Shown here in pieces: positions 6,401 to 22,744 of a stretch of 24,000 bases of DNA; position 1 is the first letter of the stretch; each line of letters opens with the position of its first letter. The translations under genes were made by a program, and so were the position numbers. The notes under the pieces are model-generated. The model made no database searches. It was not told where the DNA came from and saw only the letters and a list, made by a program, of their open reading frames with translations. This stretch comes from an uncultured Mycobacteriaceae bacterium (GTDB lineage Bacteria > Pseudomonadota > Alphaproteobacteria > DSM-16000 > Inquilinaceae), in NCBI GenBank assembly GCA_964526565.1, contig CAZGMC010000004.1, forward strand, positions 15,370 through 39,369, written 5' to 3'.

Positions 6401-7663
6401 TCGGGAACCCTCATCGATGCCAATGACGTGTTCTATCGCATGACTGGTTATGCGCGCACCGAGGTGGAGGCCCGCGCCCTGACGTGGCGCATGATGACGC
6501 CGCCGGAGTGGGTCGAGGCCAGCGAACAGGAATTGGCCAGGCTGGCGCTCACGGGCCGCATAGGGCCTTACGAGAAGGAGTATTTCAGAAAGGACGGCTC
6601 GCGCCTCTGGATGCTGTTCGCCGGGCGCAGCCTCGGCGATGGCACCGTTGTCGAATACTGCATCGACGTGACCGACCGGAAGCGCATGGAGGAGGCGCTG
6701 CGGGAAAGCGAGGAACGGTACCGGTTCCTGTTCAATGCGATTGACGAGGGGTTCTGCACCATTGAAATGATCTTTGACGAAAGCGGCCGACCGGTCGATT
6801 ATCGCTTTCTGAGTGTGAATGAATCATTCGAGCGCCAGACCGGCCTCAAGGATGCTGTGAACAGGACCATGCGCTCGCTGACGCCAAAACACGAGGAGCA
6901 CTGGTTCGAGATTTTTGGCCGGATTGCCATGACAGGCGAGGCGGAGCGCTTCGAGAAGCCGGCCGCGGAACTTGGTCGTTACTATGAGGTCTATGCCTTC
7001 AGGGTCGGCAATACTGAAGAACGGAAGGTCGGCATCATCTTCAAGGACGCGAGCGAGCGCAAGCGGGCCGAGGAGCGGCAGGCGCTGCTGGTGCGCGAGC
7101 TCAACCACCGGGTCAAGAACATGCTCGCCTCGGTGCAGTCGATCGCCGCGCAGACGTTGCGCCGCAGCGAGTCGCTGGAGGGCTTCGGCAAGGCCTTCTT
7201 CGGCCGCATGGAGGCGCTGGCCCACTGCCACGACCTGCTGGTCCAGAGCAACTGGCGGGGTGCCAATGTCAGCCGCCTGCTGCGCGAGACCCTGAAGCCG
7301 CACTTCCGCGACGGCCACGACCGCATCACCGACGACTGCGCCGATTTCACCCTGCCGCCCTCTTCAGCCCTGGTCGTGACCCTGATCCTGCACGAGCTGG
7401 CGACGAACGCGGCCAAGTACGGGGCGCTGTCCACTGCCGACGGCCGCATCGAGGTGGATTGCCGCCGCGTCGACGATTCGGGCGCCCCCAGGATTCACTT
7501 TGTCTGGGTCGAGCACGATGGTCCCCAGATCGCCCCGCCGACCCACAAGGGCTTCGGCCGCACCCTGATCGAGCGCAGCGTGCAATACGAGCTGGATGGC
7601 GAGGTGGACCTCGACTTCCGCAGCGAGGGGCTATGCTGTAAGGTGACCTTTCCCGCGCCGTAG
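3431..7663 (+). CDS. multidomain sensor: CheB-like methylesterase + CheR-like SAM methyltransferase + coiled coil + PAS repeats + HWE/HisKA_2 histidine kinase
   Basis: The 1410-aa product shows each domain by motif. The N-terminus has CheB-type motifs (VVGIGASAGG, ILSGTGSNG). The CheR-type region has VTSFFRD, IWVPGCATGEEAYSLA and DLISCRNLLIYL. A heptad NEEL coiled coil follows, then several PAS-like blocks. The C-terminus has the kinase motifs ELNHRVKNMLA (phospho-His box) and GFGRTLIE. Confidence 0.9.
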   Translation: MNDAPERVSHVVGIGASAGGIAAVGTFLDNTPADSGLAFVVIMHLDPSRESHLRDLFARHTEMPVVDAEDGMPVLANRVHILPPNAKLRLIDSHFRLEALDQPRAERRPVDYFFTSLAGEYGDHAMCVILSGTGSNGSAGLKRVKIAGGLAVVQDPGTAQYSGMPHNAIATGVVDLVLPADRIPQALVHYLRHPHALRPAREDVEDREAEPDRDFHSILTLLRTRTGQEFRCYRRKTLLRRICRRMGLRQVDGLGRYAALLREDQREVTALARDLLINVTSFFRDPEAWQVLAERAIDPLIAEHRGDESLRIWVPGCATGEEAYSLAMLFSERADAAQKRTEFTIFASDATEDAVAIGRDGVYPASMIEELEPERIKRFFDREDDIFRVRKELRDAVIFAPQNVLQDPPFSRLDLISCRNLLIYLEPDVQRKVISLFHFALRQGGYLFLGNAETAAGQDDLFETLSKTWRIYRRMGPTRHELIDFPIIRHDGRDDHDGHEHGAPRQSGQPMPEPAALGRAADIARRALLDRYAPPSVLVDRRLRVVHFYGATEQFLRQPGGEPTTDLMALLRDGPQARVRSAAQDALAGSHPVTVEAWYRHDGGFCPVQVTAAPLRLPGDLDTALLISFAKPAGAEAPPAAAPPTEGHRATEEQLEQELRAVRDELRMTIEQMESSNEELKASNEEIMSMNEELQSANEELETSKEELQSLNEELNTVNAQLQNKVHELEGRTNDLNNLLNSTDIATLFLDQGMCIRWFTPGIKDLLDLMPSDVGRPISHFAQKFTDGSFEDDAAAVLRTLVPRSGEVASDDGHWYIRRFMPYRTEDNRIDGVVVTFTDITESKQSEQQIARAREFAESIVDTLHQPLVVFDDRLRVLSANETFYRDFQVSRDDTEGKFIYDLGNGQWNIPDLRHVLEDILPKQRIVRNFEVEHDFDSIGRRVMLLNARRLDHMPQILIAIDDITARKQAEERLHRVLETDAVGILFFDESGTLIDANDVFYRMTGYARTEVEARALTWRMMTPPEWVEASEQELARLALTGRIGPYEKEYFRKDGSRLWMLFAGRSLGDGTVVEYCIDVTDRKRMEEALRESEERYRFLFNAIDEGFCTIEMIFDESGRPVDYRFLSVNESFERQTGLKDAVNRTMRSLTPKHEEHWFEIFGRIAMTGEAERFEKPAAELGRYYEVYAFRVGNTEERKVGIIFKDASERKRAEERQALLVRELNHRVKNMLASVQSIAAQTLRRSESLEGFGKAFFGRMEALAHCHDLLVQSNWRGANVSRLLRETLKPHFRDGHDRITDDCADFTLPPSSALVVTLILHELATNAAKYGALSTADGRIEVDCRRVDDSGAPRIHFVWVEHDGPQIAPPTHKGFGRTLIERSVQYELDGEVDLDFRSEGLCCKVTFPAP

Positions 7664-11858: not shown

Positions 11859-11931
<73 letters not shown>

Positions 11932-11946
11932 TGGACACACCCAGGA

Positions 11947-11972
11947 CCCGGCCGGAAACGGCCGGGTTTTTT
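11947..11972 (+). terminator. rho-independent terminator after tRNA-Ala
   Basis: CCCGGCCG-GAAA-CGGCCGGG is an 8-bp GC stem with a GAAA tetraloop, followed by TTTTTT. Confidence 0.85.
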
Positions 11973-12012
11973 CGTATCCGTCCGTCAAAACCGTATCGGG
12001 CGCATTGTGAAC

Positions 12013-12846
12013 ATGACCGTTTCCGACCCGCCCCTCATCGTCATGGTGGCCCCCAACGGGGCGCGCCGGACCAGGGCGGACCATCCGGCACTGCCGGTCA
12101 CGCCGGCGGAGCTGGCGGACAGCGCGGCGCGGTGCCTCGAGGCCGGGGCGGCAGCAATCCACGTCCACGTCCGCGACCGCGACGGGCGCCACACCCTCGA
12201 CCCGCAGGCATACGCCGCGGCGCTGGCCGCCATCCGCGGTGCCGTCGGCGACCGGCTGATCTGCCAGATCACCACCGAGGCGGTCGGCCGCCACACGCCG
12301 GCGGAGCAGGTGGCGACGGTGCGCGCCGTGCGCCCGGAGGCTGTGTCGCTGGCGCTGCGCGAGCTCGCCCCCGGCCCCGAGGACGAAGCCGAAGCGGCAC
12401 GGTTCCTGGCCTGGCTGGCCGCCGAGCGGATTCACCCCCAGTTCATCCTGTACGACAGCGCCGACGTTCGGCGCTTTGCCGACTGGCGGCGGCGCGGGCT
12501 CGTGCCGCAGGAGCGGCCGTTCCTGCTGTTCGTCCTGGGCCGCTACGCCGGCGAACGCGGCGCCCGGCCGGCCGACCTGATCCCGTTCCTGACCGCCGCG
12601 GCGCCGGGCGGCGGCCTGGAAACCCCTTGGGCCGTCTGCGCTTTCGGCCCGCGCGAGGGCGCCTGCGCGTTGACGGCGGCGGCCTTGGGGGGGCATAGTC
12701 GCATCGGTTTTGAGAACAACATGTCTCTGGCCAGCGGCGCGATTGCATCCGACAATGCGGCGCTGGTGGCCGAGACGGTGGCCACGGCGGCCCTGATCGG
12801 ACGTACGGCCGCGACCGCCGACCAGGCGCGCGACGCACTCTATTGA
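12013..12846 (+). CDS. beta-keto acid cleavage enzyme family protein (BKACE/DUF849, 3-keto-5-aminohexanoate cleavage enzyme-like)
   Basis: PLIVMVAPNGARRTRADHPALPVTPAELADSAARCLEAGAAAIHVHVRDRDGRHTLDP matches the BKACE N-terminal TIM-barrel signature (AP.G...P.lPvTp.E......AGAa..H.HvRd). The start is set at ATG 12013 because the track start at 11923 would overlap the tRNA and its terminator. Confidence 0.8.
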   Translation: MTVSDPPLIVMVAPNGARRTRADHPALPVTPAELADSAARCLEAGAAAIHVHVRDRDGRHTLDPQAYAAALAAIRGAVGDRLICQITTEAVGRHTPAEQVATVRAVRPEAVSLALRELAPGPEDEAEAARFLAWLAAERIHPQFILYDSADVRRFADWRRRGLVPQERPFLLFVLGRYAGERGARPADLIPFLTAAAPGGGLETPWAVCAFGPREGACALTAAALGGHSRIGFENNMSLASGAIASDNAALVAETVATAALIGRTAATADQARDALY

Positions 12847-12981
12847 GGGACCGGGGGCGGGCCCGTGCCGGGTCGCCCCCTGGCCAACGCCGCGACACGC
12901 CGGGTACAAGGCGGCCGCGGCGGCGCCGGGATTGCCGGATGGCAACCCCGTCAAGAAGAAGGCAGACATGGAGGAACGAGC

Positions 12982-13965
12982 ATGCGAACCATCGTAGCAG
13001 GCACCCTGGCCGTCGCCGTCGCCGGCGCCGTCGGCCTGACCGGCCCGGCGGTGACTGCCCAGGACGAGACCTTCGTCTCGATCGGCACCGGCGGCGTCAC
13101 CGGCGTCTATTATCCGACCGGCGGCGCCATCCAGCGCCTGGTCAACCGCGGCCGCGCCGAGCACGGCATCCGCGTCGCCGTGGAGAGCACCGGCGGCTCG
13201 GTGTTCAACCTCAACGCCATCGGCTCGGGCGAGCTGGACATGGGCGTCGCCCAGTCCGACCAGCAGTACAACGCCTATCATGGCGAGGGCCCGTTCGAGG
13301 AGGTCGGTGCCAACGAGGACCTGCGCGCCGTCTTCTCGATCCACGGCGAGCCGTTCACCGTCGTCGCCCGCGCCGACGCCGGCATCGCGACCTTCGAGGA
13401 CCTGCCGGGCCACCGCGTCAACATCGGCAACCCCGGCTCCGGCCAGCGTGCCACCATGGAGCGGCTGATGGAGGTCTATGGCTGGAGCATGGACGACTTC
13501 AGCCAGGTCTCCGAGCTGCAGTCGTCAGAGCAGGCCCAGGCCCTGTGCGACAACAACGTCGACGCCATCGTCTTCACGGTCGGCCACCCGTCCGGCTCGA
13601 TCCAGGAGGCGACGACGACCTGCGACACCGTCATCGTGCCGGTGCAGAGCGAGACCGTCGACCAGCTTGTGGATGAGAACCCGTACTACGCCTACACCAC
13701 CATCCCCGGCGGCATGTACGAGGGCAACCCGGACGATGTCGTCACCTTCGGCCCGAAGGCCACCTTCGTCACCTCCACCGCGGTCGGCGCGGACGTGGTG
13801 TACCAGGTCGTCGCGGCGGTGTTCGACAACATCGACGACTTCCGCCGCCTGCACCCGGCCTTCGCCACCCTGGAGCCGGAGCAGATGGTTCGCGACGGCC
13901 TGTCCGCCCCGCTGCATGAGGGTGCCGAGCGGTACTACCGCGAGCACGGCCTGATCCAGGAATAG
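12982..13965 (+). CDS. TAXI-family TRAP transporter solute-binding protein
   Basis: A signal peptide (MRTIVAGTLAVAVAGAVGLTGPAVTAQ) is followed by the TAXI hallmark SIGTGGVTGVYYPTGGAIQRLVN. GGAGGA lies 7 nt upstream of ATG 12982. Confidence 0.9.
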   Translation: MRTIVAGTLAVAVAGAVGLTGPAVTAQDETFVSIGTGGVTGVYYPTGGAIQRLVNRGRAEHGIRVAVESTGGSVFNLNAIGSGELDMGVAQSDQQYNAYHGEGPFEEVGANEDLRAVFSIHGEPFTVVARADAGIATFEDLPGHRVNIGNPGSGQRATMERLMEVYGWSMDDFSQVSELQSSEQAQALCDNNVDAIVFTVGHPSGSIQEATTTCDTVIVPVQSETVDQLVDENPYYAYTTIPGGMYEGNPDDVVTFGPKATFVTSTAVGADVVYQVVAAVFDNIDDFRRLHPAFATLEPEQMVRDGLSAPLHEGAERYYREHGLIQE

Positions 13966-13990
13966 GACACGACCAGTCAGCAGGAAGGCT

Positions 13991-14022
13991 GCCGGCGGGG
14001 CGGAACATTCTGTCCCGCCGGC
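13991..14022 (+). other. intercistronic stem-loop after the binding-protein gene
   Basis: GCCGGCGGGGC-(10-nt loop)-GTCCCGCCGGC forms an 11-bp stem with one G:U pair, followed by TTTCC. The 3' arm sequence TCCCGCCGGC recurs at 14029-14038 and 14041-14050. Confidence 0.6.
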
Positions 14023-14068
14023 TTTCCTTCCCGCCGGCCTTCCCGCCGGCGGCCATCGGGAACGGCCC

Positions 14069-16900
14069 ATGAGCGCAGAGGCACAGGAGCGGCAGTCCTC
14101 CGCCAACAACCTGGAGGATCTGGTGGCATCGACCGATACCGGCGCCCGCCACCCGGACAGCCCCGTCGCCGCCAGGATCATGATCCATGCGGCGTTCCTC
14201 TGGTCGGTGTTCCAGCTGTGGATCGCCTCGCCGCTGCGCTTCCACGATTACTTCGGCGTCACCTTCAGCCCGAACGATGCCCAGACGCGGGCGATCCACC
14301 TCGGCTTCGCGCTGTTCCTGGCCTTCCTGGCCTTTCCCGCACTGAAGCGCTCGCCGCGCGACCGCGTGCCGGCGCTCGACTGGGTCCTGGCCATCGTCGG
14401 CGCCTTCTGCGCCAGCTATCGCTTCTGGTTCTATGATGACCTGGCGCGGCGTCCCGGCCTGCCCACCGACCTGGACATCTGGGTGTCGGTGGTCGGCCTG
14501 ATCCTGCTGCTGGAGGGCACGCGGCGCTCGCTGGGGCCGCCGCTGATGGGCGTGGCGATGGTGTTCCTCGCCTACGTCTTCTTCGGCGACGCCAACTGGC
14601 TGCCGGACATGATTCGCTATCCGGGCGCCAGCCTGAACCGCGCCATGAGCCATATGTGGCTGGAGGACCAGGGCGTGTTCGGCATCGCGCTGGGTGTCTC
14701 CACCAAGTTCGTGTTCCTGTTCGTCCTGTTCGGTGCGCTGCTGGAGCGGGCCGGGGCCGGCAACTATTTCATCAAGGTGGCATTCTCCCTGCTCGGCCAT
14801 TTGCGCGGCGGCCCGGCCAAGGCGGCGGTGGTCGCCTCGGGCATGACCGGGCTGATCTCCGGCTCGTCGATCGCCAACGTCGTCACCACCGGCACCTTCA
14901 CCATCCCGCTGATGCGGCGGGTCGGCTTCACCTCGGAGAAGGCCGGCGCGGTCGAGGTGGCCAGCTCCGTCAACGGCCAGATCATGCCGCCGGTGATGGG
15001 CGCGGCCGCCTTCCTGATGGTCGAGTACGTCGGCATCCCGTACATCGACGTGATCCGCCATGCCTTCCTGCCGGCGGTGATCTCGTACATCGCGCTGCTC
15101 TACATCGTCCACCTGGAGGCGCTGAAGCAGAACATGACCGGCCTGCCGCGGCCCGGCCGGCCGCTCGGGGGCAGGTGGGCGCTGATCGCCTTCGGCTTCA
15201 CGGTCGCCTCGGTGCTGATCATCGCCGGCGCGGCCTACTGGGTGCTGGCCGCAGCGGCGGCCCTGGCACTGGACAGCGCGGTGTTGCTCGGCATCCTCGC
15301 CGTGTTCGCGCTGGAGGTCGTGTTCTTCAAGGCGCTCAAGGCGCGCCTGCCCGCCGACCGCGCCCGCCACTTCATCTCGGCCGGCGCCCTGGTGCTGGGC
15401 AACGTCGTCCTCGGCACGCTGGCACTGTACTACGGCATCGCCGTGCTGCGCGACGTGTTCGGCGGCGGCGCCAGCTGGGCGATTGCGGCGCTGGCCGCCG
15501 TGGTCTACGTGGCGCTGATCTGGTACGCGGCGCGGGTGCCCGAGCTGGAGATGGACGACCCGAACTCGCCGATCATCCACCTGCCCGAGCCGGGACCCAC
15601 GGTGAAATCCGGCCTGCACTTCCTGCTGCCGATCGTCGTGCTGGTCTGGAGCCTGATGATCGAGCGGCTGTCGCCGGCGCTGTCGGCGTTCTGGGCGACC
15701 GCGCTGATGATCTTCATAGTGCTGACGCAGCGCCCCCTGTTCGGCATCTTCCGCCGGTCGCGCCAGCCGCTGTGGGACGCCGCGAAGCAGGGCTTCTCCG
15801 AGCTGTTCGAGGGCATGGTCACCGGCGCGCGCAACATGATCGGCATCGGCATCGCCACGGCCACCGCCGGCATCATCGTCGGCACCGTGACGCTGACCGG
15901 CATCGGCCTGGTCATGGCAAATTTCGTCGAGTTCCTGTCCCAGGGCAGCCTGATCCTGATGCTGCTCCTGGTCGCCGTGCTCAGCCTGATCCTGGGCATG
16001 GGCCTGCCGACGACCGCCAACTACATCGTCGTGTCCGCCCTGATGGCCCCGGTCGTGGTCGAGCTGGGCGCCCAGAGCGGGCTGGTCGTGCCGCTGATCG
16101 CCGTGCACCTGTTCGTGTTCTACTTCGGCATCATGGCCGACGTGACGCCGCCGGTGGGCCTGGCCTCGTTCGCCGCCGCCGCGGTATCGGGCGGCGACCC
16201 GATCCGCACCGGCATCATTGCCTTCTACTATTCGTTGCGGACTGCGGCGCTGCCCTTTATCTTCATTTTCAACACACAGATCCTGTTGATCGGCATCGTT
16301 GGACCGGTCAACCTGATTCTGACCGTGGGCAGCGCCACCGTCGCCATGCTGGTCTTCGCCGCTGCCACCCAGGGCTATTTTTTCACGCGCAGCCGTCTTT
16401 GGGAATCGGCCGTGCTGCTGCTGGTCGCGTTCACCCTGTTCCGGCCGGGCTTCTGGATGGACATGGTGTTTCCCCCAATCGAGCAGGCCGACCCGGCGCA
16501 ACTCGTCGAGCTGGCCGAGCAGGCGCCGCGCGGCGGCCGCCTGCGTGTCATCCTTGAGCGGGAAGACTTTCGCGGCAACGTGACGAGGGTCACGCAGATG
16601 CTCGACCTCGGGCCCGCCGGCCCCGGCGAGGAGCGGCTGCGCCATGCCGGGCTGGATTTCTTGACGGTTGGCGAGGACGAGGTCACCGCCGAGCCGGTCA
16701 TGTTCGGGCCGCTCGACGACCCGGACTTCGACCCGGTGCTGACCGTCGTGTCCGTCCAGCAGCGTGCCGAGGTGCCACCGAAGGAGCTTGCCTTCATTCC
16801 GGCCCTTCTGGTGCTGGGCCTGATCGTCCATATACAGCGGGTGCGCAGCCGGCGCCAACCGGCAGCACCGGCGGCCGCGGCGGCGGAGGCAAGGGTGTAG
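14069..16900 (+). CDS. TAXI-type TRAP transporter fused permease with a C-terminal extension (DUF3394-like)
   Basis: The 943-aa product is very hydrophobic with many TM segments. SVFQLWIASPL near the N-terminus and SGSSIANVVTTGTFTIPLM are typical of fused DctQM-like TAXI permeases. The last ~150 aa are a mostly soluble segment ending in one more TM (FIPALLVLGLIVHI). Confidence 0.88.
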   Translation: MSAEAQERQSSANNLEDLVASTDTGARHPDSPVAARIMIHAAFLWSVFQLWIASPLRFHDYFGVTFSPNDAQTRAIHLGFALFLAFLAFPALKRSPRDRVPALDWVLAIVGAFCASYRFWFYDDLARRPGLPTDLDIWVSVVGLILLLEGTRRSLGPPLMGVAMVFLAYVFFGDANWLPDMIRYPGASLNRAMSHMWLEDQGVFGIALGVSTKFVFLFVLFGALLERAGAGNYFIKVAFSLLGHLRGGPAKAAVVASGMTGLISGSSIANVVTTGTFTIPLMRRVGFTSEKAGAVEVASSVNGQIMPPVMGAAAFLMVEYVGIPYIDVIRHAFLPAVISYIALLYIVHLEALKQNMTGLPRPGRPLGGRWALIAFGFTVASVLIIAGAAYWVLAAAAALALDSAVLLGILAVFALEVVFFKALKARLPADRARHFISAGALVLGNVVLGTLALYYGIAVLRDVFGGGASWAIAALAAVVYVALIWYAARVPELEMDDPNSPIIHLPEPGPTVKSGLHFLLPIVVLVWSLMIERLSPALSAFWATALMIFIVLTQRPLFGIFRRSRQPLWDAAKQGFSELFEGMVTGARNMIGIGIATATAGIIVGTVTLTGIGLVMANFVEFLSQGSLILMLLLVAVLSLILGMGLPTTANYIVVSALMAPVVVELGAQSGLVVPLIAVHLFVFYFGIMADVTPPVGLASFAAAAVSGGDPIRTGIIAFYYSLRTAALPFIFIFNTQILLIGIVGPVNLILTVGSATVAMLVFAAATQGYFFTRSRLWESAVLLLVAFTLFRPGFWMDMVFPPIEQADPAQLVELAEQAPRGGRLRVILEREDFRGNVTRVTQMLDLGPAGPGEERLRHAGLDFLTVGEDEVTAEPVMFGPLDDPDFDPVLTVVSVQQRAEVPPKELAFIPALLVLGLIVHIQRVRSRRQPAAPAAAAAEARV

Positions 16901-16906
16901 GCGACC

Positions 16907-17335
16907 ATGTACCGGGACATCCTCTTGCCGGTCGACCTGGCCGATTCCAGCTCATGGCGTGCGGCACTGCCAGTGGCGCTGACATTGTGCCGGTCGTTCG
17001 GCGCCCGGCTGCACGTGGTCAGCGTAGTGCCGGACTTCGGCATGGCCATTGTCGGCCAGTACTTTCCCGAAAGCTTCGAGAAGGAGATGATCGAGGAGAC
17101 ACGCAAGGCCCTGCACGCCTTCGTCGGCGAGCACGTGCCGGCGGACGTGCCGGTGCAGCACGTCGTCGCCCACGGCACGGTCTATCAGGAGATCCTGCGC
17201 GCCGCCCACGACACGGGCGTCGACCTCATCGTCATCGCCTCGCACCGGCCGGAGCTGCGCGACTACCTGCTGGGCCCCAACGCCGCCCGCGTCGTGCGCC
17301 ACGCCGGCATGTCGGTGCTGGTCGTGCGCGAGTGA
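16907..17335 (+). CDS. universal stress protein (UspA family)
   Basis: The 142-aa product has YRDILLPVDL at the N-terminus and DLIVIASHRPELRDYLLGPNAARVVRHAGMSVLVVR at the C-terminus. It starts 6 nt after the permease stop. Confidence 0.85.
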   Translation: MYRDILLPVDLADSSSWRAALPVALTLCRSFGARLHVVSVVPDFGMAIVGQYFPESFEKEMIEETRKALHAFVGEHVPADVPVQHVVAHGTVYQEILRAAHDTGVDLIVIASHRPELRDYLLGPNAARVVRHAGMSVLVVRE

Positions 17336-17347
17336 GGGACGGATACG

Positions 17348-18082
17348 ATGATCGATTGGAACCGTCTGAGCCGGCCCGAACTGACGGCCATGCATGAGGC
17401 CGCCACCGAGGTGGTGTTGTGCCAGCGCGTGCTGGCCAAGACGGGCGACAACGTGGTCTCCGAAATCCTGCGCGATGCCGGAACCTTCTTTGAATGGCAT
17501 CACTATCCCAAAGGCGACGTCTACGACGCCGAGTACCACGCACAGTATTACTACCACGCTCATCCCGAGGGTCAGCGCGTCCCCGGCGAACACGGCCACT
17601 TCCACGTGTTCCTGCGCCCCTTCGGCATGCCGGAGGGAATGAAGCCGGCACCACTGCCCGACTACAAGCCGGCCCGGAACCGCAATGACGAATTGAGCCA
17701 TCTGGTCGGCATCTCCATGAACGGGGCCGGCCAGGCGATCCGTCTGTTCACCACCAACCGCTGGGTCACGGGCGAGACTTGGTACTCGGCCGAAGATGTG
17801 ACCGCCATGCTTGATCGCTTCGTGATCGACCACGCGCGGCCGTCGTGGCCGACCAACCGCTGGATCACCGCCATGATGCGGCTGTTCCGGCCGCAGATCG
17901 CCGCCCTGCTGCACCAGCGCGACCGGCGCATCGCCGAGTGTGCAGCGCAGAGCCGGAGCCGGAACGTCTATGAGGACCGCGACCTCGAGGTGACGTCGGA
18001 GCTGGGCATTTCGGTGCCGGACCAGATCGTCGCCCTGGAAGATGCCATGCAGGGCCTGCGCCGCGACGCCGCAGCGGTCTGA
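17348..18082 (+). CDS. His-cluster protein of unknown function (I recall relatives catalogued only as a DUF, possibly DUF6969; unverified)
   Basis: The 244-aa ORF starts 12 nt after usp and has high GC3 throughout. It contains a dense His/Tyr cluster, WHHYPKGDVYDAEYHAQYYYHAHPEGQRVPGEHGHFHVF. It has no motif of a characterised enzyme family that I can name. Confidence 0.7.
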   Translation: MIDWNRLSRPELTAMHEAATEVVLCQRVLAKTGDNVVSEILRDAGTFFEWHHYPKGDVYDAEYHAQYYYHAHPEGQRVPGEHGHFHVFLRPFGMPEGMKPAPLPDYKPARNRNDELSHLVGISMNGAGQAIRLFTTNRWVTGETWYSAEDVTAMLDRFVIDHARPSWPTNRWITAMMRLFRPQIAALLHQRDRRIAECAAQSRSRNVYEDRDLEVTSELGISVPDQIVALEDAMQGLRRDAAAV

Positions 18083-18135
18083 AGACGGCCTTCGGCCGAC
18101 CACAGGGACCGCCCGCGCCGGCAGCGGCAGCGGCC

Positions 18136-18182
18136 GTCGGCTCCCCCCTCCCCCCGGGGGGGGGGCCAGGCAGGCAGCCGAC
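18136..18182. repeat. GC homopolymer palindrome: GTCGGCT-C6-T-C6-G10-...-AGCCGAC
   Basis: Read directly from the sequence: C6 at 18143-18148, T at 18149, C6 at 18150-18155 and G10 at 18156-18165. The flanking 7-bp inverted repeat is GTCGGCT (18136-18142) and AGCCGAC (18176-18182). Confidence 0.9.
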
Positions 18183-18371
18183 TTCATCTGCCCATCCGCC
18201 TTCTGACCCGGTCCGGCCGGTCCCGAACGCCCATCCGGCGCCGGTCAACGCGCATCAACAACGCTCGCCATGCGTCAGCGCATCTGAACAGCGCTGGACC
18301 CGTTTTGACATGCATCATGGCGGTTCGTCGCAGCAAACATCAGTATGCCCGTGTTCGCAGTCGTTCGGTCG

Positions 18372-18394
18372 TGTTCATGTCAGTTTGATGAACA
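18372..18394. promoter_or_regulatory. inverted repeat TGTTCAT-N9-ATGAACA (candidate operator)
   Basis: The 7-bp arms are perfect. The repeat lies 88 nt upstream of the 18482 start. The right arm is part of ATGAACATGG, which recurs exactly at the start codon (18482-18491). Confidence 0.35.
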
Positions 18395-18481
18395 TGGTGC
18401 CGGCAGAGCAGGGCAGCGCTCGCGGGCCCGCCTTTGCACCACGATGGATGACGGCTCGAGACGACGAAGGGATCCTTCCGT

Positions 18482-20371
18482 ATGAACATGGACAGTAACA
18501 GCAGAACCTTGCCGTTCGTGCTGCCCGACGACTATCAGGCCGTGGTCGCCTCGGCCCCGCGCGTCTTCGTTCCGGAGACGCGGCGGGAGCTGGTAGACTT
18601 GGCGCTCGGCGGCGCCGGCAGCGACCGCTTCGAGGTCGGCTATGACGTGCCCGGCAAGGGCTATGTCGCCGAGGCCGAGGTGGTGCGCGCCCGCAATGGC
18701 GTCGTGGTCAACTACCTTGAGTCGTACATGCGCCGCCGGGATCCCGACAGCATGGTCGTGGCCGATGCCGCCCCCACGGACCAGCGGCGCTTCGACGACC
18801 GGTTCGGCGGGCCATTCGCGCCGGTCCGCAAGGACATCCTGAACTGGCTGGCCGCGCAGGAACTGGTGCTGGTCCCGTTCAAGGCGGGGCACGCGGACTA
18901 CGGCTACGACGCGCTGCTGCTGGCCCCGGCCAATGCCGGCTTCTTCGCCGCCGCGTTGGCCGACCTGCAGGGCAGCATCCCCGGCAGCGAGGTGCCAACG
19001 GACTTCGCCCCGCGCGCCTTCGTCGTCCTGGCGCCGCCGTTCCGGCACACCCTGTGCGAGGGCCGACAGGTCGTGGTCCATAACCGGACCGACCAGGCCC
19101 ACGAGGTGTTCTCGTTCAACCTCTATCCGGGCCCCAGCGCCAAGAAGGGCATCTACGGCGTCCTGCTCAACATCGGTGAGGCCGAGGGCTGGGTCACCAC
19201 CCACTCCTCGACGGTGCAGCTGGTCACGCCCTACGACAACACGTTCACGATCATGCACGAGGGTGCCTCGGGCGGCGGCAAGAGCGAGATGCTGGAATAC
19301 CCGCACCGTGAGATCGACGGGCGCCTGCTGCTCGGCCACAACCTGGTCACCGGCGAGAAGCGCTACCTCACCCTGCCGCGCGCCTGCGAGCTGCATCCGG
19401 TCACCGACGACATGGCCCAGTGCCAGCCGAGCCTGCAGAACCAGAGCCGGAAGCTGGTCGCCACCGACGCCGAGAACGGCTGGTTCGTGCGCGTCGACCA
19501 CATCAAGCAGTACGGCACCGATCCGCACCTGGAGCGGACCTGCGTCAATCCGACCGAGCCTCTGCTGTTCCTGAACCTGGAGGCAGTTCCCGGCGCCACC
19601 TGCCTGATCTGGGAGCACACATATGACGCTCCCGGCAAGCCGTGCCCGAACCCGCGCGTGGTGCTGCCACGCCAGCAGGTGCCGAACATCCAGAACGATC
19701 CGGTCGAGGTCGACATCCGCACGCTGGGGGTGCGCACGCCGCCGTGCACGAAGGAGCAGCCGAGCTACGGCATCCTCGGCATGATGCACGTCCTGCCGCC
19801 GCCGCTCGGCTGGCTGTGGCGGCTGGCCACCCCGCGCGGCCATGCCAACCCCAGCATCGTCGATACCGGCGGCCTGAGCAGCGAGGGCGTCGGCTCGTTC
19901 TGGCCGTTCGCCACGGGGCAAAAGGTCGAGCTGGCCAACATCCTGCTGCGCCAGATCCGCGAGACGCCGGAAACCGACTTCGCCATCTTTGCCAACAGCC
20001 ACATCGGCTGCTGGAAGGTCGACTTCATGCCGCAGTGGATCGGCCGCGAATACCTGGCGCGGCGCGGCGGCGCGCGGTTCCGTCCCGGCCAGCTCGAGCG
20101 GGCGCGGCTGGCGATCCTGGGTTATGTGCAGTTGCAGATGCAGGTCGAGGGGGCGCTGGTCCCGGACTGGTTCCTGCGCACCCATCTGCAGCCGGAGGTC
20201 GGCGAGGAGGCCTATGACATCGGCGGCGAACAGCTGATGGGCTACTTCCGGCGCGAACTGGAGCATTTCCGCAAGGCGCCGTCCCTCGACCCGGTGGGCC
20301 GGCGCATCCTGGAGGTCTTCTTCGACGGCGGCCACCAGGGCAACTACAAGGACGCCTGGGCGGCGGCCTGA
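18482..20371 (+). CDS. large protein of unknown function with a PEPCK/HprK-type P-loop (I recall relatives annotated as DUF4914; unverified)
   Basis: The 629-aa ORF has high GC3. It carries the P-loop HEGASGGGKSEMLE (nt 19262-19288), followed about 40 aa later by HPVTDDMAQC and then ENGWFVRVDH. This order resembles the PEP carboxykinase kinase-1a/kinase-2 motifs and the HPr kinase GxSGxGKSE...ADD motifs. An in-frame stop at 18449-18451 fixes the first possible start at 18482. Confidence 0.8.
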   Translation: MNMDSNSRTLPFVLPDDYQAVVASAPRVFVPETRRELVDLALGGAGSDRFEVGYDVPGKGYVAEAEVVRARNGVVVNYLESYMRRRDPDSMVVADAAPTDQRRFDDRFGGPFAPVRKDILNWLAAQELVLVPFKAGHADYGYDALLLAPANAGFFAAALADLQGSIPGSEVPTDFAPRAFVVLAPPFRHTLCEGRQVVVHNRTDQAHEVFSFNLYPGPSAKKGIYGVLLNIGEAEGWVTTHSSTVQLVTPYDNTFTIMHEGASGGGKSEMLEYPHREIDGRLLLGHNLVTGEKRYLTLPRACELHPVTDDMAQCQPSLQNQSRKLVATDAENGWFVRVDHIKQYGTDPHLERTCVNPTEPLLFLNLEAVPGATCLIWEHTYDAPGKPCPNPRVVLPRQQVPNIQNDPVEVDIRTLGVRTPPCTKEQPSYGILGMMHVLPPPLGWLWRLATPRGHANPSIVDTGGLSSEGVGSFWPFATGQKVELANILLRQIRETPETDFAIFANSHIGCWKVDFMPQWIGREYLARRGGARFRPGQLERARLAILGYVQLQMQVEGALVPDWFLRTHLQPEVGEEAYDIGGEQLMGYFRRELEHFRKAPSLDPVGRRILEVFFDGGHQGNYKDAWAAA

Positions 20372-20389
20372 ACGGACGTTGGACGGCCT

Positions 20390-20422
20390 GGGGCGGAGCG
20401 GCAGGCAGAGCCGCTCCGCCCC
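20390..20422. terminator. bidirectional terminator-like hairpin between convergent genes
   Basis: GGGGCGGAGCGGC-aggcaga-GCCGCTCCGCCCC is a perfect 13-bp stem. It sits between the stop at 20371 (+) and the stop at 20449 (-). It is followed by ATTCCTTTCC, which is only a weak T-tract. Confidence 0.6.
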
Positions 20423-20448
20423 ATTCCTTTCCGGGCGTGGGCGGAGCC

Positions 20449-20898
20449 CTAGTCCGCTGCCTGCTCCGGCGCCGTCACGCGGCGCAGATAGGCCATCAGG
20501 GCACGCAGATCCTCGTCGTCGCGCAGAGCGGCGAAGGCCATGCGATTGCCGGGAATGTAGCGGCGGGGCTCGCGCAGATAGGCCTCCAGCGTTTCCTCGG
20601 TCCACACGATGTCGGCGTTGCGCATGGCCTCGGAATAGCGGAAGTCCGGCAGACTGCCGGCCGGCCGGCCGAACAGACCGACCAGGTGCGGCCCCACCTT
20701 GTTTTCGCGATGAGCGGCGGCGTGGCAGGCGGCGCAGCGGGTATAGACCTGCCGCCCCTGAGCGAACAGGGCATACTCTGCCGTGCCCGTGTCGCCATCG
20801 CCGCCGTCACCGCAGCCGGCGGCCCCGAGCAGCAGCGCCGCCGCGACCGTCGGCTTCAGCCAGCGCCTCAGCCAGCGCCTCAGCCAGCGCCTCAGCAT
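20449..20898 (-). CDS. lipoprotein-type class I cytochrome c (c2-like)
   Basis: The product has the heme motif CAACH, NKVGPHLVGLFGRPAG, and the distal Met context IPGNRMAF. The N-terminus MLRRWLRRWLRRWLKPTVAAALLLGAAGC has a lipobox-like LGAAG-C. The start at ATG 20898 overlaps the rhodanese stop by 7 nt. Confidence 0.85.
   Translation of the reverse strand: MLRRWLRRWLRRWLKPTVAAALLLGAAGCGDGGDGDTGTAEYALFAQGRQVYTRCAACHAAAHRENKVGPHLVGLFGRPAGSLPDFRYSEAMRNADIVWTEETLEAYLREPRRYIPGNRMAFAALRDDEDLRALMAYLRRVTAPEQAAD
20856..20896 (-). repeat. in-frame 12-bp tandem repeat (3.4 copies of TCAGCCAGCGCC on the + strand) encoding (RRWL)x3
   Basis: Read directly from the sequence, with copies at 20856-20867, 20868-20879 and 20880-20891 plus a partial copy at 20892-20896. 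On the minus strand it reads ATG CTG (AGG CGC TGG CTG)x3 AAG. Confidence 0.95.
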
Positions 20899-21350
20899 GA
20901 CGGGCAGGGCTCGGTCGGCAGCCGCCGCGACAGCCAGCCCGGTCCGTCGCGGCTGCCGTGCATGCCTTCGGCTACGTCGTAGACGTGCGTGAAGCCGCGC
21001 GCGGCCAGGAACGACTGCGCCGCCCGCGACCGTGCCCCCGACGCGCAGATCAGCGCCACTGGCCGGTCGCGGTCGCCGCCCACCGCCGCCTCCACCGCGC
21101 GCAGGAAGGCCTCCGGCCCGCCGCTGTTGTGGATGGTGACGGGCAGGGCACCGGCCGGCAGCCCGGTGCGCCGCCATTCCATCGGCGAACGCACGTCAAC
21201 GAGGACCAGTTCGCCCGTTTCGGCACGGCGCAGCGCCTCGTCCGCGGCCAGGCGTCCGTCATCGGCCGCGGCATGCCGCCCGACGGCGGCAATGGCCATG
21301 ATCATCATTGCGGTCAGCAGTCCCTTCACCGGCAGGCCTCCCTGTCGCAT
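20892..21350 (-). CDS. exported single-domain rhodanese-like sulfurtransferase
   Basis: The product has a signal-like N-terminus (KGLLTAMMIMAIAAVGRHAAA), LVDVRSPMEW, and the active-site loop ICASGARS. The start is uncertain: ATG 21350 has no SD, whereas GTG 21329 lies 7 nt after GGAGG. Confidence 0.8.
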   Translation of the reverse strand: MRQGGLPVKGLLTAMMIMAIAAVGRHAAADDGRLAADEALRRAETGELVLVDVRSPMEWRRTGLPAGALPVTIHNSGGPEAFLRAVEAAVGGDRDRPVALICASGARSRAAQSFLAARGFTHVYDVAEGMHGSRDGPGWLSRRLPTEPCPSC

Positions 21351-21448
21351 GGGAACAGCACGCGGCGCCGCTCGCCTCGCAGGCGGGGGAGCAAGGCTGC
21401 CCAGTCGGCGGCGCGGCTGACATGCTGGTATCCTTTATGGCTGAACGG

Positions 21449-21463
21449 GTTGCATTTTGCAAC
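21449..21463. promoter_or_regulatory. perfect palindrome GTTGCA-TTT-TGCAAC (candidate operator; fits T-N11-A)
   Basis: Read directly from the sequence, in the divergent rhodanese/DUF2336 intergenic region. GCAAC recurs at 21493-21497 and 21521-21525, and TTGCA recurs at 21561-21565. Confidence 0.4.
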
Positions 21464-21562
21464 GCGGGGCCGGTGTCGGTGCAGGCCAGCCTGGCAACGC
21501 TGCAAGAGCCTGGGCTTAAGGCAACATTAAAGAGTCCTTGGCAGTTTGTTTCGCATACGCTT

Positions 21563-21592
21563 GCACCGGCCCCGGACACCATGGGCCGGTGC
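21563..21592 (+). other. perfect 10-bp stem-loop in the DUF2336 leader
   Basis: GCACCGGCCC-(10-nt loop)-GGGCCGGTGC. Its 3' end lies 30 nt upstream of ATG 21623 and is followed by a CCTCCT element. Confidence 0.5.
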
Positions 21593-21622
21593 CGTTCAGT
21601 CCTCCTGCGGTTGGGCTCCCGG

Positions 21623-22744
21623 ATGACAAGTTCTCTTACGCGCGATGACGTCACCCGTCTGCTGGCGGAACCCTCGGCGCAGGTGCGCGCCACGATCGCC
21701 GAAAAGGTGGCCGGCCAGCTCGACGCGACCAGCCTGACCCGCGACGAGCTGCAACTGGCCCAGGACATCGTTCAGATCATGGCTCGCGACGCCACCACCC
21801 TGGTGCGCGAGGCGTTGGCGGCGAACCTGAAATCGTCCAGCAACCTGCCGCGCGACGTGGCGCTGCACCTGGCCAGGGACATCGACTCGGTCGCCGTGCC
21901 GATCCTGGAATGCTCCGAGGTGCTGGCCGACGAGGACCTGATCCGCCTGGTTCGCACGCAGCCGGAGAGCAAACAGGCAGCCATCGCCCGCCGCACCGCA
22001 CTGTCGGAGGCAGTGGCCGATGCCCTGGTGCAGACCGACAACCGCACCGTCGTGCGTGCCGTGGTCGCCAATCACGGCGCGCGCATCGGCGAGGAGACCC
22101 TGCACCGCGTGGTAGACCGGTACGGGGCCGACGAAGGCATCCAGGAGCCGCTGGTCCGGCGTGGCAGCTTGCCAATCACCGTGACCGAGCGGCTCGTCGC
22201 CATGGTCTCCGACCGGCTCAAGGACTATCTGGTCACCCACCACGAGATGAGCGCGGACAGTGCCAGCGAGCTGGTCCTGCGCGCGCGCGAGCGGGCCACC
22301 GTCAACATCGTCAGACCGTTCACCGACGAGGACGCGCTGGAGAAGCTGGTGGTCCAGCTCGGTCGCAACGGCCGTCTGTCGCCCTCGCTGGTGCTGCGGG
22401 CGCTGTGCATGGGCGACATGCCGTTCTTCGAGTACGCCATGGCGCAGCTCGCCGGGGTGCCGGTGGTCAACGCCCGCATCCTGATCCACGACCCCGGCAT
22501 GCTCGGCATGAAGTCTCTGTACGACCGGGCACGGCTGCCGGCAAAGCTGTTTCCGGCGTTCCGCACGGCTGCGCAGGTGGCCAGGGACACGGACTTCCGC
22601 GGCGCCGACTACGACCGCGAGAGCTACAGCCGCACCATGCTGGAACGGATCCTGACCCAGTGCGAGGACCTGCGCTGGGACGACGCCGAATACCTGCTGC
22701 GCAAGCTGATCGACATCGCCCCGCCGGCCATGAACGCGGCGTAG
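21623..22744 (+). CDS. DUF2336 domain-containing protein
   Basis: The 373-aa product is helical-repeat-like. It begins MTSSLTRDDVTRLLAEPSAQVRATIAEKVA and contains LPRDVALHLARD, which matches my recollection of the alphaproteobacterial DUF2336 family. The start is set at ATG 21623; the track ORF start at 21308 would run through the divergent promoter region. Confidence 0.75.
   Translation: MTSSLTRDDVTRLLAEPSAQVRATIAEKVAGQLDATSLTRDELQLAQDIVQIMARDATTLVREALAANLKSSSNLPRDVALHLARDIDSVAVPILECSEVLADEDLIRLVRTQPESKQAAIARRTALSEAVADALVQTDNRTVVRAVVANHGARIGEETLHRVVDRYGADEGIQEPLVRRGSLPITVTERLVAMVSDRLKDYLVTHHEMSADSASELVLRARERATVNIVRPFTDEDALEKLVVQLGRNGRLSPSLVLRALCMGDMPFFEYAMAQLAGVPVVNARILIHDPGMLGMKSLYDRARLPAKLFPAFRTAAQVARDTDFRGADYDRESYSRTMLERILTQCEDLRWDDAEYLLRKLIDIAPPAMNAA

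Follow-up and report, generated by a model that had tools for sequence, protein, structure and literature searches.

Does a run of six genes on one strand constitute a single metabolic system, or does it consist of separate units that lie side by side? The question is raised by positions 12013 to 20371 of the window, which is the whole analyzed stretch of 24,000 nucleotides (nt) from contig CAZGMC010000004.1 (GenBank assembly GCA_964526565.1), with a G+C content of about 68%. Directly after a tRNA-Ala gene and its terminator, this region encodes a protein that belongs to the family of beta-keto acid cleavage enzymes (BKACE), a TAXI-type binding protein and a fused permease of a tripartite ATP-independent periplasmic (TRAP) transporter, a universal stress protein (USP), a DUF6969 protein and a DUF4914 protein. 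An earlier reading of this DNA, the original prediction, had assigned all six to one pathway. The analysis described here indicates that the six-gene "system" does not exist as a unit, and that the genes probably form three independent units which share a strand by chance placement. The three questions that were merged in the earlier reading are now separated, and each can be tested alone.

The six genes and their linkage

The open reading frames (ORFs) were assigned by Pfam and NCBIfam profile matches, and the tRNA gene by ARAGORN and Rfam. The features of the cluster are given below by position in the window.

11859..11931, plus strand: tRNA-Ala, anticodon GGC (ARAGORN; Rfam RF00005, 62.6 bits)
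11946..11972, plus strand: intrinsic terminator 3' of tRNA-Ala, read from the sequence
12013..12846, plus strand: BKACE-family protein with a non-canonical active site (PF05853, E 7e-71, 239 bits)
12982..13965, plus strand: TAXI-type TRAP solute-binding protein, GluP-like (TIGR02122, E 8e-102)
13991..14022, plus strand: G+C hairpin of 14 base pairs (bp) and T-rich tail, located 3' of the binding-protein gene and 5' of the permease gene
14069..16900, plus strand: fused TRAP Q-M permease with a C-terminal DUF3394 domain (TIGR02123, PF06808 (DctM), PF11874)
16907..17335, plus strand: USP (PF00582)
17348..18082, plus strand: DUF6969 protein with an invariant His/Tyr cluster (PF22308, E 3e-89)
18083..18481, plus strand: 399-nt spacer between the DUF6969 and DUF4914 genes
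18482..20371, plus strand: DUF4914 protein with a PEP carboxykinase fold (PF16260, E 1e-291)
20389..20423, no strand: hairpin, 14 bp and perfect, in the gap where the DUF4914 and cytochrome c genes converge

The six plus-strand ORFs lie 3' of the tRNA-Ala terminator and are separated by gaps of 135, 103, 6, 12 and 399 nt. The terminator is composed of the stem CCCGGCCG, the loop GAAA, the stem CGGCCGGG and a run of six T, with a G+C stem of 8-9 bp. The terminator, the six same-strand genes, the five gap lengths and the family labels of the original prediction were all borne out. On the upstream side of tRNA-Ala, the window carries the ribosomal protein genes rplM and rpsI. Only about 40 nt (11973-12012) separate the T-run of the terminator from the start codon of the BKACE-like gene, and neither a Shine-Dalgarno nor a promoter match was seen there. 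A consensus promoter scan gave one promoter-like site, located within the BKACE-like gene, a yield that does not exceed chance, and the Rfam search of the cluster was negative for riboswitches and other regulatory RNAs.

The linkage of the genes was determined from both unknown-family sides. A profile scan for DUF6969, with one genome per species, gave at least 593 loci, of which the best 80 were analyzed by tblastn with the window proteins; the denominators given below are the informative loci among these 80, namely 70 for the SpbR-family gene that follows the cluster and 62 for TRAP. The corresponding test for DUF4914 covered 84 loci, amounting to 894 kb in total. DUF4914 was near DUF6969 in 0 of the 80 loci, and BKACE, TAXI, TRAP, USP, DUF6969 or DUF2336 was near DUF4914 in 0 of the 84. 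This co-occurrence check thus removes the proposed linkage of DUF4914 to TAXI and BKACE genes. The closest DUF4914 homologues outside the lineage (73-77% identity) and a planctomycete copy have unrelated flanks, mostly on the opposite strand. The six-gene order of the window recurs just in one close relative, whose DUF4914 protein is at least 90% identical and in which the USP-DUF6969 and DUF6969-DUF4914 gaps are 201 and 434 nt, respectively.

The remaining genes are also separable. The TRAP module occurs without DUF6969 in three loci (L172, L173 and L174), and in the Azospirillaceae, DUF6969 and SpbR occur without TRAP genes, where an Mla-type ABC operon lies upstream and SpbR is still found downstream. 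Because the module and the DUF6969/SpbR pair occur apart and DUF4914 is unlinked, the cluster is regarded as a juxtaposition of three units, and the conserved linkage of all six genes that the single-pathway idea implied was not found elsewhere. Unit 1 (12013-17335) would be an uptake module of the BKACE-like enzyme, the TAXI binding protein, the fused Q-M permease and the USP. Unit 2 would be DUF6969, whose stable neighbor over evolution is the downstream SpbR-family gene. Unit 3 would be DUF4914, which has its own upstream region and terminator and appears to have been inserted between DUF6969 and the cytochrome c and SpbR genes in this lineage only.

DUF6969 and its SpbR-family neighbor

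Of the 70 informative loci, 45 have a DUF2336/SpbR gene no more than 3 kb downstream of DUF6969, and of the 62, 23 have a same-strand TRAP permease gene upstream. A USP gene is near DUF6969 in 21 of the best 80 loci and a BKACE-like gene in 16, all of them among the 23 TRAP-carrying loci. Whenever these genes occur, they follow the order BKACE-like, TAXI (in one to three copies), permease, USP and DUF6969. The original prediction had counted DUF6969 as a partner in the cluster and had left outside it the gene that proves to be the steadiest neighbor of DUF6969.

That neighbor in the window is the following.

21308..22744, plus strand: SpbR-family (DUF2336) protein (PF10098, E 9e-78; NF052659, 475 bits against a cut-off of 400)

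The match to the NF052659 SpbR equivalog spans residues 110-467 of the ORF and places the protein in the SpbR family. Since the long ORF runs into the divergent rhodanese gene, its true start is probably near 21580-21635. In Caulobacter crescentus, SpbR (CC2323) is a polar protein which affects chromosome segregation and is degraded via RcdA/ClpXP (preprint). The likeness to the Caulobacter protein is given by the NCBIfam SpbR equivalog cut-off, which the gene downstream of the cluster passes; SpbR has been studied in Caulobacter only.

The closest relatives of the DUF6969 protein of the window are found in Rhodospirillales-type alphaproteobacteria. An alphaproteobacterial origin of the window is also indicated by its HWE-type histidine kinase and its DUF2336 gene. 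At 50% identity, the DUF6969 family falls into 1245 clusters, and single-domain proteins make up almost all of its members. The label "His-cluster protein" given by the original prediction holds: 32 homologues all have H52, H64, H70, H72, H82, H84 and H86, and several Tyr residues are invariant as well. Among them, H70, H72, H82, H84 and H86 alternate along two predicted beta-strands (residues 65-70 and 81-89), and this alternation of invariant His on two strands suggests a metal site. The AlphaFold2 model is confident, with a predicted local distance difference test score (pLDDT) of 90 and a predicted template modeling score (pTM) of 0.90. Compared with solved structures, the model gave no fold match, the best hit having an E value of 0.69 and a template modeling score (TM) of less than 0.2; sequence searches against solved structures likewise gave nothing for DUF6969 or DUF4914. 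A cupin fold had been considered because of the HxH motifs and was rejected, as no cupin was among the fold matches. From the model and the conserved residues, DUF6969 is probably a cytoplasmic His-cluster protein that would bind metal and has an undescribed fold.

The literature search found no paper that mentions DUF6969, and its pairing with SpbR is not described there. Fusions of DUF6969 with DUF2336 were sought as independent evidence of a link, and the search yielded only fusions with an SH3_3 domain at the C-terminus. These are rare proteins of about 630 residues (P0387 and P0438), in which DUF6969 is joined to the bacterial SH3 domain via a linker of about 300 residues. The steady pairing with SpbR points to cell-pole biology rather than catabolism, and our best guess is that DUF6969 serves as a metal-binding partner of the SpbR-family protein and not as a catabolic enzyme.

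One alternative is that the first five genes form a single unit, in which DUF6969 genuinely assists the TAXI-TRAP transporter, for instance as a metal-dependent enzyme or sensor that acts on the imported compound, and DUF4914 alone is foreign. The DUF6969 gene starts 12 nt past the USP gene, with its own GAGGGA ribosome-binding site, and this gap makes it probable that the two are co-transcribed in this genome, only through tight local spacing. The same-strand TRAP genes upstream of DUF6969 (the 23 loci mentioned above) come from several orders, and in two loci (L062 and L069), BKACE-like and TAXI-like genes are kept beside DUF6969 in the absence of a permease gene. However, the TRAP module and DUF6969 each occur alone, and the USP-DUF6969 gap elsewhere ranges from 138 nt to 6.6 kb, often with other genes inserted, of which an FGE-sulfatase-like gene is a frequent one. 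SpbR is the more constant neighbor of DUF6969. In addition, a neighbor-joining tree shows that the TRAP linkage follows the phylogeny of DUF6969, as inherited gene order would, which fits an arrangement present in the ancestor and subsequently disrupted in part of the lineages. We therefore regard the five-gene unit as unlikely and prefer the separation of DUF6969, with SpbR as its lasting neighbor, from the uptake module.

The FGE-sulfatase-domain protein mentioned above (PvdO/EgtB-like, about 300 residues, with a signal peptide) is encoded beside DUF6969 in 24 of the 80 loci and is not present in the window. In these loci, one of which is L040 (8918-9817), its gene is mostly directly upstream of DUF6969 on the same strand; it also occurs at 16643-17500 of locus L175.

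The transporter module and its BKACE-family enzyme

The assignment of the transporter is clear from the profile matches. The binding protein scores 340 bits with TIGR02122 against a cut-off of 84 (PF16868, E 3e-85), which places it in the TAXI family; it has a signal peptide, and its gene has a GGAGGA ribosome-binding site. The permease scores 687 bits with TIGR02123 against a cut-off of 321 and contains DctM and DUF3394 domains, as a fused Q-M permease. The USP gene follows 6 nt after the permease gene, and PF00582 covers its product over the full length (residues 1-141, E 4e-25).

The binding protein is 56% identical to VcGluP of Vibrio cholerae (VC0430, PDB 8S4J) over 297 residues without a gap, and 60% identical to the TAXI protein of PDB 9OZ4, for which the literature search found no paper. 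VcGluP binds L-glutamate with high affinity, which depends mainly on Y45 and Q93; further residues of the ligand site are S75, E125, Y200 and M201 (PMC11574862). Nine of the 13 ligand-site residues are identical in the window protein, and these include all direct side-chain contacts; Y45, S75, Q93, H123 and E125 (VcGluP numbering) are kept. The four differences are S40G, D157Q, Y200F and M201T, which concern water-mediated or main-chain contacts, or the position that the VcGluP authors found to be negligible (Y200). The pattern GVYYSQHEGQ[F/Y]TG is conserved among the orthologous binding proteins of related loci. Judged by these residues, the ligand is most likely L-glutamate or a very close amino-dicarboxylate, and the substrate is probably not the unidentified organic acid that the original prediction assumed.

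The resemblance to VcGluPQM extends beyond the binding protein. VcGluQM (VC0429) unites the Q and M components in one permease that carries a DUF3394 "claw" at its C-terminus, and 3' of the V. cholerae GluPQM genes lies a uspA gene (PMC11574862); the window has likewise a DUF3394 permease and a USP gene directly downstream. The TAXI protein, permease and USP are, therefore, a new member of an already described kind of system. The two systems differ in that the V. cholerae locus has no BKACE-family or aminotransferase gene, whereas the lineage of the window has a BKACE-family gene 5' of the transporter and its relatives have both, and in the four changed second-shell or main-chain site positions. 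A further comparison is provided by TeaABC of Halomonas elongata, a DctP-type ectoine transporter and not a TAXI-type one. There, too, a USP gene, encoding the regulatory protein TeaD, directly follows the TRAP permease gene (cited in PMC11574862).

According to the proposed mechanism, the periplasmic binding protein would capture L-glutamate or the close amino-dicarboxylate and hand it to the permease, which would be driven by an ion gradient. The hairpin at 13991..14022, just after the binding-protein gene, probably attenuates read-through, so that more binding protein than permease would be produced. USPs have been reported as negative regulators of TRAP transport (PMC11574862). The suggestion of the original prediction that the USP modulates the transporter agrees with this literature and is supported in part; by analogy, such a modulation of transport is probable here.

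In six loci (L040, L045, L047, L059, L071 and L175), two or three tandem TAXI genes lie 5' of one permease gene. In the extra TAXI copies (37-53% identity), the residues of the ligand site have diverged, and this suggests that one transporter may serve several ligands.

The BKACE-like protein is matched by PF05853 over its full length, and its zinc ligands are kept (HVH and GFENN, aligned to those of Kce). The best NCBIfam equivalogs, for Kce, 3-oxoadipate transferase and dioxohexanoate transferase, reach 144, 119 and 104 bits, far below the respective cut-offs of 382, 350 and 430. The active site was compared by alignment to five solved members, including Kce (PDB 2Y7D) and BKACE15 (PDB 8RIO). 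The motif P-E-x-E-x-[YF]-[DE] reads PEVEVYE in Kce and FEFECYD in BKACE15, and PQFILYD in the window protein. The Glu that serves as the catalytic base (E143 in Kce, E171 in BKACE15) is accordingly replaced by Ile145, and the Glu neighboring it is a Gln; the positions aligned with E14 and D231 of Kce are Arg and Asn. The change from Glu to Ile or Val is shared by each of the 15 syntenic orthologues and each of the 120 closest homologues. The sequences of this subfamily also have in common an invariant FENN (FEDN in Kce), the Arg aligned with E14 of Kce, and a Glu within T[TS]E[AS] that is new and likewise invariant.

In BKACE15 of Paracoccus denitrificans, E171 is the catalytic base, and the mutation E171L abolishes the activity (PMC11961710). 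Family members that lack a catalytic residue were earlier grouped as "non-BKACE" and reported to be inactive on keto acids. The window protein resembles Kce and BKACE15 in the full-length PF05853 match, the TIM-barrel and the conserved zinc ligands (HxH and the Glu of GFE), and differs from them in the missing catalytic Glu and the new invariant Glu. Owing to the missing catalytic Glu, the protein is classed as a member of the BKACE family and not as a beta-keto acid cleavage enzyme. Classical beta-keto-acid cleavage is unlikely, unless the subfamily-specific Glu89 took over as the base, and the C-C cleavage step of the original prediction is thereby doubtful. By its conserved residues, the protein is to be described as a conserved, atypical zinc TIM-barrel enzyme of the BKACE family.

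The order of BKACE-like, TAXI and permease genes is observed in all seven loci L169-L175. The USP gene comes next in all of them except L172, whose next gene encodes an opposite-strand RND pump. In four look-ups made from the BKACE side, the BKACE-like, TAXI and permease genes were in order in all four, the USP gene was present in three and DUF6969 in one; a class-III aminotransferase gene (NF005685) was directly upstream of the BKACE-like gene in three. Of the 16 DUF6969-linked loci with a BKACE-like gene, 11 likewise have the aminotransferase gene adjoining it. The positions of the aminotransferase gene in four loci, with NF005685 scores of about 760-780 bits, are as follows.

L173, 7670-9004: class-III aminotransferase
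L175, 7667-9004: class-III aminotransferase
L174, 7652-8977: class-III aminotransferase
L169, 372-1709: class-III aminotransferase

In L173 and L175, the aminotransferase gene overlaps the BKACE-like gene by 4 nt, and this overlap suggests a two-enzyme step on an amino compound. In the close relative of the window, the aminotransferase gene is three genes away from the BKACE-like gene, and it is absent from the window itself, where it would have been lost from the head of the module and tRNA-Ala and the ribosomal protein genes stand in its place. The aminotransferase, the BKACE-like protein, TAXI, the permease and the USP form a conserved module across Rhodospirillales-type alphaproteobacteria. 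The literature search found nothing that links TAXI with DUF849 and an aminotransferase. Few TAXI-TRAP systems have an assigned substrate, and this one is probably of the glutamate type; the module as a whole is not described in the searched literature and may reveal new chemistry in the BKACE family. Of the single pathway, then, the part that joins the BKACE-family protein to TAXI-TRAP and the USP is conserved (16 of 23 loci, four of four BKACE-side look-ups and the close relative), and the links of these genes to DUF6969 and DUF4914 are not.

In locus L172, a DMSP-lyase/cupin-type gene (PF16867; 8323-9000) abuts the BKACE-like gene without a gap, in the place of the aminotransferase.

A narrower reading would take the TAXI, permease and USP genes alone as the unit, a plain glutamate importer like VcGluPQM, with the BKACE-like and aminotransferase genes as unrelated neighbors. 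It agrees with V. cholerae, where the same three genes have no BKACE-like or aminotransferase gene nearby, and with the window, where no aminotransferase gene is present and the BKACE-like gene lies 135 nt upstream, directly behind the terminator. However, a BKACE-like gene precedes TAXI in seven of seven loci L169-L175 and in the 16 TRAP-carrying DUF6969 loci, two loci show a 4-nt overlap of the aminotransferase gene with the BKACE-like gene, and the block remains intact in loci that lack DUF6969. The plain importer is quite unlikely in light of these counts, and the larger uptake module headed by the BKACE-like gene is retained as the first of the three units.

DUF4914 and the surrounding genes

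The DUF4914 family comprises more than 8000 clusters with 60-65% identity across phyla, and it spans Planctomycetota, Sumerlaeota, Clostridia and Alphaproteobacteria at 60% identity or more, with a length of about 630 residues. The P-loop GASGGGKSE is located at residues 261-269. The AlphaFold2 model has a pLDDT of 85, and its Foldseek search returned full-length matches to ATP-, GTP- and pyrophosphate (PPi)-dependent phosphoenolpyruvate (PEP) carboxykinases (PEPCK), with E values of about 3e-21 to 1e-18 over about 600-700 columns. The TM values against PEPCK are 0.6-0.77, with the Thermus enzyme on top, and the two-domain PEPCK fold is recovered. All 50 fold matches among those listed for DUF4914 are PEPCK entries. 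Of the label "PEPCK/HprK-like" in the original prediction, the PEPCK part is thus confirmed by the fold search. HprK was rejected, since DUF4914 has no Pfam or NCBIfam HprK match and the listed fold matches are all PEPCK.

At the level of the sequence, no Pfam PEPCK model matches DUF4914, and a sub-profile of the DUF4914 core gave nothing against solved structures. In a profile search, YPGPSAKKG...H of DUF4914 aligns with Y-x-G-x-x-KK...H of the Thermus PEPCK. E. coli Pck (PckA) was used as the reference, and no canonical PEPCK gene is present among the fetched loci. An hhalign comparison with E. coli Pck, at an E value of 0.01 and a probability of 4%, pairs R85 with R65, Y215 with Y207, K221/K222 with K212/K213 and H241 with H232. 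The same low-probability alignment pairs S263 with S250, K267 with K254, S268 with T255 and R392 with R333. The DUF4914 residues paired with E. coli R65, Y207, K212, K213, H232, S250, K254, T255 and R333 are invariant in the family. DUF4914 is like the PEP carboxykinases (E. coli PckA, the Thermus thermophilus enzyme and the GTP and PPi classes) in the full-length fold and the P-loop, and the low-probability alignment would add their catalytic residues other than D269, whose equivalent is ambiguous; it differs from them in an identity of 12-17%, extra insertions and a longer C-terminus.

Judging from the predicted structure, DUF4914 is best read as an uncharacterized carboxykinase-type enzyme, inserted here in a lineage-specific manner. 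A more specific proposal, which we put forward as a tentative possibility from the model and the aligned residues, is that it is an unrecognized fourth class of PEP carboxykinase-type enzyme, which would catalyze the nucleotide-dependent (de)carboxylation of PEP/oxaloacetate or a close analogue. In this proposal, the retained residues are the Arg that binds oxaloacetate/PEP, the metal-site motif of Tyr, Lys-Lys and His, and the P-loop. The literature search found no paper that mentions DUF4914 and no account of a new PEPCK class. PEP carboxykinase is central to carbon metabolism, and DUF4914 looks like a relative of it that is very widespread and has been overlooked.

Elsewhere, the gene neighbors of DUF4914 are different from those in the window. 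MpsC (PF10057) is found in 13 of 81 loci, often 5' on the same strand, and an ORF of about 300 residues without a Pfam match follows DUF4914 within 50 nt in eight loci. Other recurrent neighbors, in a few loci each, are adenylate kinase, PurE/PurK/PurC and beta-carbonic anhydrase. These neighbors give a hint of a link to CO2/bicarbonate.

The regulatory region of DUF4914 appears to be its own. The spacer 18083..18481 contains TTGACA at 18305 and the palindrome TGTTCAT-N9-ATGAACA at 18372-18394, which is perfect and unique, with 0 expected by chance, and is a candidate operator. About 190 nt adjoining DUF4914, including TTGACA and the palindrome, are kept in the close relative, and the distal part of the spacer is not; no conservation was found between this upstream region and those of DUF4914 genes in other contexts. 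On the 3' side, the hairpin at 20389..20423 is likely a bidirectional terminator. In the distal part of the spacer, a C-run followed by a G-run (CCCCCCTCCCCCCGGGGGGGGGG; 18139-18167) forms a hairpin about 60 nt past the DUF6969 stop codon, with no T tail, and this part is not conserved in the close relative.

The proposal that all six genes serve one pathway for an organic acid, with TAXI import, a DUF4914 transfer step, a DUF6969 metal step and BKACE cleavage, is highly improbable, because the common strand, the recurrence of the order in the close relative and three small gaps in its favor are set against the absence of DUF4914 linkage outside the lineage (the counts of 0/80 and 0/84, which largely refute it), the own 399-nt upstream region and terminator of DUF4914, the resemblance of the binding protein to a glutamate binder and the BKACE-like protein without the catalytic Glu.

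Several points weigh against the three units and the roles proposed for them. The 6-nt and 12-nt gaps argue for a shared permease-USP-DUF6969 transcript here, and the adjacency of TRAP and DUF6969, which spans several orders at 55-65% protein identity, could reflect function. The BKACE-like gene, as the head of the uptake module, has no detectable promoter in the 40 nt after the tRNA terminator. The assignment of glutamate is based on similarity, with four ligand-site positions that differ, and a glutamate importer has no obvious need of an aminotransferase and a BKACE-fold enzyme. For DUF4914, the hhalign match to E. coli PckA is weak, and the equivalent of D268/D269 is ambiguous, being perhaps the invariant VTDDM motif. 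The interpretation as three independent units is still the probable one. Within it, the gene identities, the counts of linkage, the folds and the conserved residues are shown directly, and the ligand, what the USP and the hairpin do, the binding of metal by DUF6969 and the DUF4914 reaction are inferred.

Between DUF4914 and the SpbR-family gene, the window contains two further genes on the minus strand.

20449..20898, minus strand: cytochrome c (c-550-like)
20892..21350, minus strand: rhodanese-domain protein (tblastn, 89% identity to the rhodanese of locus L169; weak rhodanese-type NCBIfam matches)

The stop codon of the rhodanese gene overlaps the start of the cytochrome c gene. The cytochrome c is probably a lipoprotein. 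Three tandem 12-nt repeats at 20853-20896 encode RRWL three times at its N-terminus, before a lipoprotein-like signal (LLGAAGC). In the upstream part of the window (3431-7663), one protein of 1410 residues joins a CheB methylesterase, a CheR methyltransferase, several PAS domains and an HWE histidine kinase.

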